Shown: piece by piece, positions 13,964 through 63,849 of the stretch
Layout of the letters: each line of letters starts with the position of its first letter
Numbering within the stretch: position 1 is the stretch's first letter
DNA from: Octopus vulgaris
Taxonomy: Eukaryota
Direction: 5' to 3'
Length of the DNA: 64,000 nucleotides
Assembly (NCBI GenBank): GCA_951406725.2
Contig: OX597829.1
Location: forward strand, 45,880,001-45,944,000
Program-made: the position numbers and the translations under genes
The notes under the pieces: generated by a model
What the model saw: the letters and a program-made list of their open reading frames with translations, nothing else
What the model was told of the DNA's origin: nothing
Database searches by the model: none

Positions 13964-14285
13964 TTATACTTACACACACACACATAAATAAAAATGTTTT
14001 TCTTTTGTAAGAATATTTGTTTTTATGGAATAATAAAAAACAATTTTACGTTAAACCCACGAATCAGCGGCTCAGCTTTCATGAGTCTGTTTGACCATTG
14101 AAAAATAACAACCAAACCTTCCTTAAATTACACTTCGAATTTCAAATTTATTATTCTTTAACAAGATTAGAATTGAGAGTGACTTCGAAATTTCGACCAA
14201 CTAAGCCATCATCAGGCAGTCCGATGATGGCTTAGAAAAAAAAAATAAAAAAGGAACATAAAGGGCAAAGGAGTAAGAAGAAAAT

Positions 14286-34179: not shown

Positions 34180-34225
34180 AACACAACATTTCGGCTGATA
34201 TACCCTCCAGCCTTCATCAGGTGTT
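34180..34225 (-). ncRNA. minimal type I hammerhead ribozyme motif in SINE tail
   Basis: aacac-CTGATGA-a-GGCTG-gagggtatat-CAGCC-GAAA-tgt-t-gtgtt. Confidence 0.65.
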
Positions 34226-55095: not shown

Positions 55096-55355
55096 AAAGG
55101 AGGTACAAGCAAGAGTGCCTAATAATCGACGTGGCAGTGCCAGGAGATCAACATATCATCATGAAAGAAAGAGAAAAAAAAAATGATAAATATGGAAACC
55201 TGAGAATTGAGATCGCCAAGACGTGGCAGCTACGGTAGTCAAGCATAAAGGTTATCTCTGTTGTCATCGGAGTAATGGGTTCCAATGTCACTTAACCCGA
55301 AGAAACATTTGGAAACTTTAGAAATACCCTAAAATCTAGATGTATTGCAAAAAGT
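55096..55355 (+). pseudogene. decayed R4/Dong RLE endonuclease fragment
   Basis: ECLIIDVAVPGD..KE..K..KYGNLRIEIAKTW..KVISVVIG..G; same domain as 34491-34800. Confidence 0.7.
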
Positions 55356-56850
55356 CAATATTACATGTAAAGATCGACCCGACTGCTTTGATATCCCTAT
55401 GGGTACTAGCGATTCCGCTCAAATAGCTGATTTGGTCGGTATTTATATTCTACCAGAAATGGCCGACCAATTCCCATATATTCTCGGTGGTTTATATCGT
55501 GACGACTGCCCCCTTTACTTCCAAAATATCTGTAGTCAAAAATTACAAAAACTTAAACGCAAACTTGTCAAATTCTTTAGTAGTATGGGCCTAAGTCTTA
55601 CCTTCCATCATGATAGAACTAAGGTTAACTACCTTGATCTTACCCTCAACTTAAATGCAGCCTTATATTTCCCATACCATAAACATTCAACCAAGTTCAA
55701 ATACATCGGCATTTTTAGTAACTACCCTACCAATATAACAAAAATTTGGTTAAAAACATATCGCTTAGAATCTCTGAATTATCCGCCAAATAAACCCTTT
55801 TCAATAAAATCGTTGATTTCTATAATTCAGCCTCATATAAAGCTGGATATAAGGAACAGATTAAACCTTTTAACCATCTTGTCCCTAACTCTTCCTCTAA
55901 ACATCTAGATGGTAGTAATTATGCTATTGATAATAATAGTAGTAATAATAACAATAATAATACTAATAACAATAATAATAGTAATAATATTATTAATAGT
56001 AATACTCACATTCTTCCTCCCGTAGACAATAATCTGAATAATATCCCATTTCATCAAATTAGCTATAATCCTTACCTTCGGAATTTTAAAAACAGTCAAA
56101 GAGAAGTAATTCCCCACCCTTTTTCCATTCATAAAAAAAAACATTACAAATGTCCCCATAAATCGCTTAACTCTAGTAAAAATATCAGGTTGATTGTTCC
56201 ATACGCTAAAGAAGTTAAAAGTAAAATTCCCCACCTATTTTGTCAAGCTTTCGAAAGGAACTTTCCAATAAATTTCAGGTACCACTCAATGTTCAACACC
56301 CACTGTAGCAGAAATGGCTTCTCCAACACCAGTAGCCTCCTGCAGATTATATTATTGCATAATAACTATATTCTTAAAGGTAATAGAGTCTCTCTTAATA
56401 ACTCTAATAACATTAATTATATTTACGATAATCTTTCCTTGAATAATAATATCAATGATATTTCTCCTTACAACCGTGAACCGAATAAAACTTGTGTCCT
56501 CAATAGAAATTACCGTATTAAAAATGTTCACCAATGCAAAATTACTCTGGATCTAAAGAATTTTTTTTACTTTGGATTGTCTTCTACGGAGTTGAAATGC
56601 CGTATCGCGAACCATCTTTCTACTTTTAAATACAGTCATAAGTGTAATTCTACAGGACTTAGAAATCTAATTTGGCACCTTAACGACTCTAATAAACATC
56701 TCTCTTTAGATTGGAAAATTTTATCAAGATCGTTTCCCTATGACAAAGGGAAATCTTTCTGTCCTCATTGTGCCTTCTAACAACTATTTATTTTATTTTC
56801 TAAACATAATCTGGTCAACGCCTTTAATGATCGTGTTTACAGGTGTTTGC
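55356..56850 (+). mobile_element. Penelope-like element remnant (RT + GIY-YIG), frameshifted
   Basis: FDIPMGTSDSAQIADLVGIYIL, GGLYRDD, VNYLDLTLNL, PYHK, SNYP; then QCKI..FYFGLSSTELKCRIANH..TGL..IWHL..WKIL..C.HC. Confidence 0.8.
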
Positions 56851-59685: not shown

Positions 59686-60631
59686 GTATTTTTCAATGTG
59701 TACAAATAACATGGATAAATAAATAAATAAATAGTTACTAGAGTAGCAAAAATATTCACATAAGTACCAAAGATGTCACAGCCTACTTATAAAGATAGAA
59801 GTTCGAGGGTTTAGTGAAATGTTTTTGTGTTACATATATAAATAAATAAATGGAGTTAAAACGATAAAGAGTTGTTGTTGTGGATCTTTATGCTGCTGTT
59901 GTTGTTGTTTTTGTACACAGTTCTTGTTTCTATCGCAGTGGTTCCTGTTGCTTTGGTTGACTTCGTTCTTGATGCTGTCTTCGATTTTGTTCTTGTTGTT
60001 TTTGCTGTTGTTGTTGTTGATGTTTTGTTGTTGTTTATCACGTTCTTGCCTTTCCTGCTACTGCTGCTGCTTTATTTAAATACATTGTCGTTACTGTTGC
60101 TATTGTTGGCTCTGTTGTTGTTGCTGCTGTTGTTGTTGTTATTGTTGTTGTTGTTGTTACCGTTCCTACTTGAATTTTTGCAGGTGTTTCCGTCGTCATA
60201 ACAAGACGACGATGATACTTCGCGAACTGAGATTCTATAAATTTGTTCCAGCTCCAACTTGTTTGTCATTTGACGTCATGTTCCCGTTGCCATGGTTCCA
60301 TTGCCACTCGAAACTGTGTCGACGGAACGCTTTCCGCAATCGATTACACTGGTCTACAAAAATTTTTGTTCTTTGCTCTGAGGCAAGGATGTGAATAGGT
60401 GTCGGTTTTTTTTTTTTTTTAACTAATTTTGATGTTGTGAATTCAATTTTCTGAACAGTTTTGCTCTATCACCTCTAGATTTTTTTTTGCTTTCACATAT
60501 CCCATTTTAATTATACGGCATATAAATTCAAAAACATAATGTGTTTATTTCATTTGCTACAAAGGCATATTGCAGAAAATAAAAAACAGCGTAGATACAG
60601 AACGTTGATGGAACTAAATTGCTTCGATAAT

Positions 60632-61023
60632 GGATGGATGGAAGCACTCCGTCGGTTTCGACGACGAGTGCTCCGGTTGATCCAAATCAACGGAACAGCC
60701 TGCTCGTGAAATTAACGTGTAAGTGGCTGAGCACTCCACAGACACGTGTACCCTTAACGTAGTTCTCGGGGATATTCAGCGTGACACAGAGAGTGACAAG
60801 GCCGGCCCTTTGAAATACAGGTGCAACAGAAACAGGAAGTAAGAGTGAGAGAAAGTTGTGGTGAAAGAGTACAGCAGGGATCACCACCATCCCCTGCCGG
60901 AGCCCCGTGGAGCTTTAGGTGTTTTCGCTCAATAAACACTCACAACGCCCGGTCTGGGAGTCGAAACCGCGATCCTATGACCGCGAGTCCGCTGCCCTAA
61001 CCACTGGGCCATTGCGCCTCCAC
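60632..61023 (-). mobile_element. tRNA-derived SINE, third family (tail type B), 12-bp TSD
   Basis: Same head/body as 15099-15295 but different 3' half ending (ccat)n; TSD tgcttcgataat at 60620-60631 and 61024-61035. Confidence 0.88.
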
Positions 61024-61099
61024 TGCTTCGATAATACAATACACACAAATCATAGGACAGCAGACAGAAGTGAGTTTTTTTTAAACGGTATTATGTACT

Positions 61100-63070
61100 T
61101 TGCCTACGGGATGACACGCAAGAGCTTCCAGCAAAAGTTCTCTATCGTGCTGGGGTTCCACTTGCCTTGGTAGTTGCTCTCCATCTTAGTAATATCTTGA
61201 TGGAGTCGATCTCCATGCTCATCACTCACTGTTCAGAGATTTGGAAGGAAGTAGTTGGGGTGGGAGTGGTGAAAGTGAAATTTGATGACGTCCGGCATCC
61301 CATATCCTCATTAGACTGTAACAGCTTATCTCTCTCCCTCTCTCCCTCTCCGTTCTCTTTTTACTTGTTTCAGTCATTTGACTGCGGCCATGCTGGAGCA
61401 TCGCCTTTAGTCGAGCAAATCGACCCCGGGACTTATTCTTTGTAAGCCCAGTACTTATTCTATCGGTCTCTTTTGCCGAGCCACTAAGTAACGGGGACGT
61501 AAACACACCAGCATCGGTTGTCAAGCAATGCTAGGGGGACAAACACAGACACACAAACACATACACATACATATATGTATACATATATACGACAGGCTTC
61601 TTTCAGTTTCCTTCTACCAAATCCACTCACAAGGCATTGGTCGGCCCGAGGCTATAGCAGAAGACACTTGCCCAAGATGCCACGCAGTGGGACTGAACCC
61701 GGAACTATGTGGTTGGTAAGCAAGCTACTTACCACAAAGCCACTCCTGTAATCTAGTACCCGTGTGTTACCAAGGAAGCCACGGCAGAATAACATAAATG
61801 CTTCTCATGCTCTCAGTTCCTTGAAGGTAAGAAGCCCCTCAAAGTACTTATCCTTCAGCACCTCTCGAATCTGAGGTCTGCCGAAGATGCCCTCCTTGAG
61901 CTTAGGAGAACTCAAAGCTGGGAACAGAGTGCAAAAGTATTGGAAAGCAGTACCATTTTTCTCCATGGCCTTCACGAAATTCTCCATGAAACCAAGCCTG
62001 ATATTTTGAAGAGGAAGAAGCACCTTGTTCATGTCCACCAGAGGATTTTCTTGGACACTGTGTTCACTAGGTACAAAAGTATTTCTAGATCCCCAGTCCT
62101 TCTGCTTGTAATGCTTGGACACATTCCGACTGCCCCAGAGACAGAGAAAGCAACAGTAATTTGTGAAGCCCACTTGCACGCCTATAAGAAGTGCAATGAC
62201 CTTGAGGTACCCGCAGACACTCCACTGGTACTGGTTGTACTTGACAGCTAACAAAAGGAGCGCCATATCGTCATACGACCCTATCAGAGGGACTGTCCCA
62301 TTGTACAGGAGTACAGCCTTCAGACTTCGCTTGGAAGAGTCTATGAAAAGACGTCAGTCTGAGGGATTGTGTGGGAAACCAAAGAAAGTGAGTGAACAAT
62401 CCAGAGACATTTGTGCAGTAGCGAAACCTGTTTCCCATGTCGGAGAATGAAGCAATGTCCTGGTTTGATGTCCTGAAACTGGTGATACTTACACTTGCTT
62501 AAGCCGGGATGCCAGGAGCTCTGACCGCTGCTTAGATAGATACAAATCATGGACAAGGCCATTCAGGTCTTCCTGCGTCATCCAGTGGGGCTCATTGCCG
62601 CTTGCTCCTGAATAAACAAGAGACGTTGTCTTAAGAAGAAACCGACTTGGCAGAATCTTCTCCTGAAGGCATTTTTTCATCTGATGAAGGACTAGGATCC
62701 TTATTTGCTGGGGGTGTAGGGACAGGGAAGTCATCTAAGTGGGAAGCCGGCCTCATAGCCGAGGGAAGGTTGGGATATTTGATCTTTTTTCTAGAAGAAA
62801 TATTGAAGCCTGTTATATTTGTTGGACAAACATAAGAACCATTTGCGTGGTTTCTTGGCTCTCTCCAGATCATCTGGACAGCAAAGTTGAAGGATGCCTT
62901 CCTTCCGTTAAACAATGCAGTTAGTCCATTGTAGCAGGGTTTACAATAGATGTGTGGGGCCCAGGATTTGTCCTGATCTCCAATTTTACAGTGAAAATAG
63001 TGAAAGTAGGTGGTTCTTATGAATGAGGTAATTGTTCAGCGTTGTGCAACTGTCGTAGCAGAATGAATTT
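61100..63070 (-). pseudogene. Chapaev3-like transposase, frameshifted
   Basis: CKIGDQDKSWAPHI, FAV.MIWREP.NH...C.TNI.G..I.YPNLPSAMRP, SELLASRL, WSVCG.LKVIALL.G.Q.GFT.YCCFLCLW.SR, KVLLP..I.LG.M.NFVKAM, KLKEGIF..PQIR, VSDEHG.R.HQDI..ME..YQGKW. Confidence 0.85.
61350..61748 (-). mobile_element. SINE, dominant family, inserted in the transposase
   Basis: Full match on the minus strand. Confidence 0.9.
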
Positions 63071-63310
63071 GCCTTGTTAATGAATACTCGATGTTTTGAA
63101 GTCCCTAAAGGCATTGTAGAGATATGTATCATATATATCACAAAAGCTGGAAAATGAAATAAAATCTGATCATATATATATGTTTATACGAATTGTCGCA
63201 AAATCTAGAAATTCAATATTTCTAGTTACGGTGACCAGTGAATAGATTTCACTGTAAATATATATATTTGCGAAGGCTTGGCAGGTATCTCAACTAGCAG
63301 GACTGGCTAC

Positions 63311-63358
63311 CCTGGACTGATGACGAGCAATGGACTCAGAAACATGCATGTCTCTAGG
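63311..63358 (+). ncRNA. type I hammerhead ribozyme with long extended stem I (rod 63263-63406)
   Basis: cctgga-CTGATGA-c-GAG-caatgga-CTC-a-GAAA-catgcatg-T-C-tctagg; GUC triplet, predicted cleavage after 63352. Confidence 0.7.
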
Positions 63359-63849
63359 TGCTAGCCCTAGCTGGTGGGGGGTGCTTGCCTCCCCTTCGCA
63401 AATATAAGAACACAGGAAATGTGTCAAAGCCGACAGGAAGTGTCGATGATAAATAGCGGTGGTGTAATTCCCTTTACGTTATGTTGACAGTCATAATAAT
63501 GTATATCTCAAAAACTAGAGGTGATGAGTGAAAAATGATTTTGTATCTGAAATCAGCACCCCAAAATTAGACTAGAAAGAACTATTTATATACTTATTTC
63601 TTTACTGCCCAAAAGGAGCTATACACAGAGGGGAAACTATTTTTATACTGTCAACTTAACGTGACAGTCCCATATACAACTGCTCTATCGTACCACCACT
63701 GCTCATATCTCTCTGAGATATTTAGAAATGTAATATAACTATTTTTATGTTTGTCTCAATTTCTCTTTTGTAAACTAGTGTTATTATTACTGACTGTATC
63801 ATGTTACGATATTATTTTCGATCTTAGGGAAATTCAAAAATAAATACCT

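Follow-up and report, generated by a model that had tools for sequence, protein, structure and literature searches.

The hammerhead found in a window of 64000 nucleotides of the Octopus vulgaris genome (contig OX597829.1; the window is the whole stretch of DNA that we analysed, and positions below are counted from its first letter) belongs to a non-coding repeat of approx. 356 bp, which is likely, with a probability of roughly 0.7, to be a non-LTR retrozyme: its RNA is predicted to cleave itself in dimeric form, it is likely to be copied by a reverse transcriptase/endonuclease of the Penelope type and, in the window, it is inserted in a dead copy of a Chapaev3-type DNA transposon. The independence of the repeat from Chapaev3, the size of its family, the structure of its unit, the selection on its RNA fold and the geometry of its insertions were all observed in the genomic copies described below.

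Hammerhead motif and rod-like fold

A type I hammerhead lies on the + strand at 63311–63358. Read from the sequence, its stem I pairs CCTGGA (63311–63316) with TCTAGG (63353–63358), and within it are found the CTGATGA core at 63317–63323, a GAG/CTC stem II closed by a C63324·A63338 mismatch (positions 10.1 and 11.1), GAAA at 63339–63342, a self-complementary stem III (ACATGCATGT, 63342–63351) and the GTC triplet at 63350–63352, with a cut predicted after C63352. Stem I is prolonged by a rod-like RNA helix (63263–63406, + strand), in which the outer helices GGCTA/TAGCC, ACTAGC/GCTGGT, a 12-bp helix with four G·U pairs and a perfect 14-bp helix are present, and both the core and the helices claimed in an earlier note on this DNA were thus found where it had placed them. 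The exception in its long extension of stem I is the outermost helix, ATTTCACTGT/ACAGGAAAT, which is lost when the flanks are folded too, each arm then forming its own local hairpin, and a local 7-bp hairpin close to the unit start (63236–63254, +) is its competitor; the inner helices stand, and the outermost one is an artefact of the chosen fold ends. A TATA-like run at 63255–63270 (+) may, from its sequence, be a promoter.

The 175 nt from 63246 to 63420 fold on the + strand to -79.8 kcal/mol (z -7.36), a value equalled by none of 200 shuffles, and the minus strand is weaker (-60.3, z -4.34). A strict hammerhead descriptor matched once in the window, both strands included, and did not match in 40 dinucleotide shuffles. 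The Rfam search called for in the earlier note gave no hammerhead family at E<=10 over 63100–63600, and the active monomer fold of the window copy, at -11.7 kcal/mol, lies approx. 9 kcal/mol above the minimum of -20.7 kcal/mol; both the lack of a match to the Rfam models and the position of the active fold count against our explanation. Two window copies together can form a 10-bp stem III (-14.7 kcal/mol). Elsewhere in the window, isolated CTGANGA...GAAA motifs with G-C closing stems occur on the - strand at approx. 34190–34220 and at 14190–14215; both resemble the minimal hammerheads of PLEs (Penelope-like elements) and both failed the strict descriptor.

Unit, family size and insertion geometry

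The unit was defined on locus L007, and 23 full monomers measure 346–359 bp with a mean identity of 85% (range 71–96%). One core pattern has 302 exact matches in the 2.8-Gb genome and a 19-mer from the 3' end of the unit has 2177, each with a reversed control of 0; these counts include the halves of inverted copies as well as related subfamilies, and leave out copies that have mutated. A sample chosen independently of the core was made up of the 100 matches to the 19-mer that came first in the list, every one of them on contig 1; after overlaps had been merged, these gave 81 loci. No ORF of at least 80 aa was found over the window insert.

Copies are 5'-truncated, and in most of those that extend to the unit start, the end of a preceding unit adjoins it. 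Dimers (L028, L063 and L080) and a trimer (L203) were found, and L028 and L266 each contain a pair of pattern-intact cores, spaced 355 and 363 bp apart respectively. These two were the only tandem pairs with both cores intact in a strict scan of the fetched loci, and long arrays are not the rule: most copies lie scattered, and no run of more than three units was seen in the sample; we count both the scarcity of such pairs and the dispersal against the retrozyme reading. The window copy itself lacks two hammerheads in tandem and, with its single hammerhead and two small deletions at the 3' end, is probably inert alone.

Head-to-head inverted copies occupy 40 of the 81 loci. In 31 of these 40, the ends of the two arms lie near unit positions 301 and 356, i.e. 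a short and a long 3' end are paired; long/long or short/short combinations did not occur (0/40), and in the remaining nine one arm is cut otherwise. By analogy with PLEs, this pairing of long and short arms is a Penelope-like fingerprint. Target duplications of at least seven non-simple bases flank 22 of 58 loci, compared with a mean of 5.6 (maximum 12) in 30 shuffled pairings.

Segments crossing the predicted cut site make up 42 of the 100 in the sample, and 5' ends are not gathered at that site (1/73 compared with 2.5 expected), a result which counts against our explanation. Because of these two observations, the template is taken to be circular or uncut RNA and not a cut linear monomer. 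An excess of 5' ends was seen at the foot of the rod (12/73 compared with 4.7, P=0.002, tested post hoc), which AT microhomology could explain. Unit position 176, which is the rod foot, is the exact site of six 5' ends, for which either stalling of the reverse transcriptase or AT microhomology may be responsible.

Evidence of selection on the fold, and how stem II is closed

Among 89 distinct rod-spanning copies, two-sided (compensatory) change was seen at 16 of 51 pairs, a pair being counted if each form occurred in at least five copies, and related copies share changes so that these are not independent events. Such covariation occurs in stems I and II and in the rod, e.g. C-G/U-A in 54/18 copies, U-A/C-G in 66/15 and G-C/A-U in 43/40 and 61/24. 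The pair cells of the 89 copies comprise 3464 Watson–Crick, 574 G·U, 124 A·C and 300 others; the preponderance of G·U over A·C therefore favours RNA of the + strand, the polarity which the earlier note had proposed.

In this set, which was partly chosen by its core, only 16 of 979 core cells depart from the majority, compared with 1537 of 11475 elsewhere, and a minor allele is present in at least eight copies at 0/11 core columns compared with 49/130 others, with the same partial bias. In the core-independent sample, the 42 core-spanning segments consist of 24 with CUGANGA/GAAA/GUC, eight with CCGANGA/GAAA/GUC and ten that are mutated, and stem III takes one of four self-complementary forms in 30 of 41 parsed segments. 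In genomic copies the core is mostly kept and the stems covary, and covariation also backs the suggestion in the earlier note of a dimer. Because a self-complementary stem III has been kept in four forms, cleavage is predicted to need a dimer. Covariation cannot separate a circle from a multimer, because the same rod forms in multimers.

The stem II closing pair is C·A in 66 copies, U-A in 13, U·U in six and another combination in four (n=89). As judged from these copies, C·A is a family trait and not a defect of the window copy, and the guess in the earlier note that position 63324 would be U in the consensus proved wrong, since it is C in 68 of 89. The canonical G10.1-C11.1 pair, called highly conserved in the available text of PMC4209133, is absent (0/89), and this absence also counts against our explanation.

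These data bear most directly on the possibility that the element is the same and is spread by PLEs, with a hammerhead that is dead or nearly so, the fold being retained for recognition or packaging and the templates being uncut multimers. We consider this rather unlikely. The missing G-C pair at 10.1/11.1, the U4C subfamily (8/42), an active fold that is not the minimum, cut ends that leave no footprint and the poor cleavage in vitro of PLE hammerheads (PMC4209133, as far as its text was available) would all fit a dead ribozyme, but such a ribozyme would hardly be expected to keep its core columns free of minor alleles, partly biased though that sample is, or to keep GUC and a self-complementary stem III through changes in length; in addition, an axolotl retrozyme with U·U at the base of helix II does cleave, and better as a dimer (PMC7229834, available part).

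Two candidate signs of activity in sequencing runs were rejected. A fall in read depth across the hammerhead in four runs guessed to be RNA was considered as a sign of cleavage, but the same fall was present in three large runs of unrecorded kind and in one more run guessed to be RNA; because it is the same across both kinds of run, it stems from mapping or from the structure of the copies. Joints spanning one unit length, considered as evidence of circles, likewise occurred in both kinds of run and are no proof of a circle. Among the records listed as containing the repeat, all were contigs and none was marked as RNA.

Penelope-like elements in the same genome

Three PLE families have been active recently in this genome, with 150 of 150 scored matches 98–100% identical, and each carries a hammerhead-like motif at its 3' end. 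One active family (L314–L345) has a 775-aa ORF with reverse transcriptase and GIY-YIG parts, a tandem period of 4271 bp and a hammerhead-like 3' repeat with a CCGAAGA core, U·U closing stem II and a palindromic stem III; this core and its U·U pair resemble the minor retrozyme subfamily. A further PLE (L346–L375) shows a CCGA core, a long stem II and two alternative 3' ends approx. 75 nt apart, and the hammerhead-like 3' motif of another active family (L376–L405) has a TTGAAGA core. The window contains a decayed PLE fragment at 55333–56780 (+), with reverse transcriptase and GIY-YIG remnants and a sequence unrelated to the unit, and no hammerhead was found downstream of it in 30 relatives. A diverged family of hammerhead repeats (L262, L263, L257, L168 and L199) has a UUGAUAA-type core, which we take to be a possible U3-A8 swap of the C3-G8 pair.

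The unit showed no likeness to the ends of four PLE families (the three active ones and one older, approx. 120 loci), so that none of them can be named as its partner; this counts against our explanation. The units could in principle derive from an autonomous PLE that was not found, as its solo terminal repeats (pLTRs) or as fragments of its 3' part, and such an origin would account for an insertion geometry that is the same as that of PLEs, which are themselves mostly 5'-truncated; the families compared were four only. We hold it to be improbable, however, given that copies reaching the unit start enter the end of a previous unit and not a reverse transcriptase gene, that PLE protein matches in the sampled loci are few and lie apart from, downstream of or opposite to the unit, and that the unit is unlike each of the four PLE ends tested.

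A nested ORF1-only cassette

Some copies of the repeat are split approx. 20–30 nt upstream of the core by a cassette of approx. 1.7 kb with one CCHC ORF of 440–460 aa, which lands in other copies approx. 25–40 nt downstream of the TATA-like run and is absent from the window copy. Its protein is homologous with ORF1 of a Tx1/L1-type LINE of the same genome (32–35% identity over approx. 180 aa, E values of 1e-32 and 9e-26), and its 3' end resembles the tail of that LINE. A homologue search with the cassette protein returned nothing at near lengths, and Atlas gave CCHC/ZCCHC3-like clusters for it (0.90–0.92). We read the cassette as a separate ORF1-only element, and liken it to the HAL1-type ORF1-only derivatives of LINEs: in common with them it has target duplications, a tail like that of a LINE and a single CCHC gene resembling ORF1, and it differs in being an element separate from the retrozyme that lands repeatedly just upstream of a hammerhead.

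Such ORF1-only CCHC cassettes were seen at L224:2694–4741, L176, L187, L155 and L228–L273, some with intact ORFs of 443–463 aa, either inside copies of the retrozyme or one after another in arrays, with periods of 1784 and 1861 bp, that comprise several diverged families, and one of these arrays ends in a full Tx1/L1-type LINE (L275). A very young Tx1/L1-type LINE with a 1149-aa ORF2 (L280–L313) is often found in tandem clusters followed by ATCT repeats.

The unit stands directly after the ORF in 16 of the 30 best ORF loci (the query included), and composites of ORF and unit recur at separate loci, some of them with inversions, as they would if the 356-bp unit were a deletion product of a hammerhead element of approx. 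2 kb encoding an ORF1-like CCHC protein. Against this derivation, which we regard as very improbable, the ORF is a LINE ORF1 homologue with a LINE-like 3' tail, the cassette has its own duplications of 14–20 bp and at least three landing points in the unit, it is also found in unrelated DNA (L234 and L246) and in arrays without a hammerhead, and it interrupts a rod that is otherwise continuous and covarying.

The Chapaev3-type host and its insertion sites

The host is an old, broken Chapaev3-type DNA transposon on the - strand at 60347–63780, with CAC/GTG termini and TTA at 60344–60346 and 63781–63783 between an outer A and T, in agreement with the Chapaev3 hallmarks of CAC...GTG ends and a TWA duplication between A and T given in the available text of PMC4079192. 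Its transposase, a candidate match to that of Chapaev3, survives as remnants at 61116–63056 (-; tblastn with P0018), split by a SINE and containing stops and frameshifts; of the C(2)C, LH and H(4)H motifs expected of a Chapaev3 transposase, CFLC and H-x4-H are present, LH reads LQ in this copy, and the homologues are unnamed. Pfam gave no family for the transposase or for the PLE fragments. The retrozyme insertion at 63206–63490 (+) comprises the end of one unit and most of the next, the former being the 3'-terminal hairpin of the preceding unit at 63206–63224 (+), a partial tandem repeat that matches positions 333–354 of the monomer and folds locally. Only TC is repeated at the ends of this insert (63204–63205 and 63491–63492).

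Further along the 5' end of the host lie a SINE-like fragment at 63592–63634 (repeat D1), with copies of AACTATTT-A/T-TAT at 63580 and 63635, and a second retrozyme fragment without a hammerhead at 63647–63736, which consists of an inverted short arm and a forward long arm and has a 12-bp target duplication (63635–63646 and 63737–63748). The AT-rich site in this 5' end has received separate insertions in four of 25 Chapaev3 copies (L052, L039, L041 and the window at 63580–63748) and is a possible target hot spot. One of them, L052:1970–2316 (oriented), holds a distant hammerhead repeat with A·G closing stem II and an AUA site.

Comparison with paralogues clearly separates the hammerhead from its host. 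From 40 scored Chapaev3 paralogues, 25 loci were fetched, 24 of them besides the window; the empty site AAAATC/ATAAT is present in 22 of these 24, the other two being interrupted there by other sequence, and the retrozyme unit was found at that site in none (0/24). Conversely, 40 of 1377 candidate hairpin matches were scored and 30 loci fetched, and in none of the 29 besides the window does a transposase adjoin the hammerhead. The host has 75–82% identity with its paralogues and has taken five later insertions, whereas the retrozyme insert has approx. 90% identity with the nearest copies of its own family. The hammerhead is therefore a passenger in a Chapaev3 copy that was already dead, and a passenger in one copy only, and is not a ribozyme module of Chapaev3; PMC4079192, in its available text, mentions no ribozyme. 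The headline proposal of the earlier note, a Chapaev3 module that processes antisense or read-through RNA, drew on the position of the hammerhead inside the transposon, upstream of and antisense to the transposase, and to this we now give virtually no credence in view of the empty sites, the 0/24 and 0/29 counts and a host that is broken and only approx. 80% like its paralogues around an insert approx. 90% like its own family. Its fallback, a small independent ribozyme-bearing insert, holds good and corresponds to the non-LTR retrozyme with Penelope-type insertion marks.

Proposed mechanism

In the retrozyme reading, the + strand of tandem or read-through copies would be transcribed, with the TATA-like run as a possible promoter. 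Two hammerheads would then pair via the self-complementary stem III and cut after GUC, which would free RNA of unit length. In a monomer running from cut to cut, the opening 50 nt are paired within the rod to a segment close to the 3' end, so that the two ends lie near each other; the rod may thereby hold them in place for ligation to a circle, probably by a host ligase, as has been found in vitro for mussel and axolotl retrozymes (PMC7229834, available part). The enzyme of a PLE would prime on AT-rich DNA and, starting at either of two preferred 3' points, copy RNA that is circular or an uncut multimer, and copying of this kind could give rise to permuted monomers, partial tandems and two-armed inversions. 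Counting against our explanation, only one of nine predicted dimers cleaved in vitro according to the accessible text of a recent preprint (bioRxiv 10.64898/2026.07.22.740005).

More tentatively, cephalopod retrozymes and their Penelope hosts may use a working hammerhead variant that dispenses with G10.1-C11.1 (having C·A, U·U or U-A instead), tolerates U4C and is missed by Rfam, and the retrozyme may also serve as a vehicle, with promoter and ribozyme, that spreads nested ORF1-only LINE genes. An active PLE of this genome bears on the first part of this suggestion, as it shares the CCGA core and the U·U closing pair.

Comparison with known systems

We found no description of this repeat family, nor of a cephalopod retrozyme, among the papers listed, mostly from open-access journals; the supplement of PMC7229834 may list cephalopod repeats. 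A hammerhead belonging to a cut-and-paste transposon would have been new and is excluded here; in its place, non-LTR retrozymes would be extended to the octopus genome, in thousands of copies. The fixed long and short arms would provide a sequence fingerprint for the proposed, unproven link with PLE enzymes, and the family supplies a candidate for a naturally occurring hammerhead variant that lacks the G-C closing pair and goes unnoticed in standard Rfam scans.

The comparisons that follow draw on the available parts of the cited sources. Metazoan non-LTR retrozymes have units of 350–390 bp in mussel, 330/350 bp in axolotl and 220–245 bp in coral (Cervera and de la Pena 2020, PMC7229834). With them the octopus family shares a non-coding unit of the same size class (about 150–450 bp), a type I hammerhead with a short palindromic helix III, tandem copies, target duplications of more than 4 bp, highly self-paired RNA and coexisting PLEs, and one axolotl family also has a mismatch at the base of helix II (PMC7229834). 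The octopus copies differ in being for the most part dispersed, truncated and two-armed, in reaching no more than three units in the sample, in having C·A, U-A or U·U for G-C at 10.1/11.1, and in their U4C subfamily and unusually long stem I rod; cleavage and circles of the octopus family are predictions from sequence. Vertebrate non-LTR retrozymes likewise occur as monomers, dimers and multimers, with dispersed monomers and a proposed dependence on PLEs (bioRxiv 10.64898/2026.07.22.740005). Of the 57 Xenopus families, 24 correspond to known elements, which are almost always PLE termini, whereas the octopus unit matched no pLTR among four PLE families.

Compared with the hammerheads of PLE pLTRs, the octopus unit lacks a reverse transcriptase/endonuclease gene and G10.1-C11.1, and its helix I has 6 bp and a long extension in contrast with 4–5 bp. 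It has in common with them a palindromic stem III, 5' truncation, partial tandems, an inverted 5'-truncated copy, a tail at a single end and TA-rich targets (PMC4209133 and PMC8557442), the one-sided tail being described for PLEs in PMC8557442. At the level of sequence, the family combines the features of metazoan non-LTR retrozymes with the insertion geometry of PLEs.
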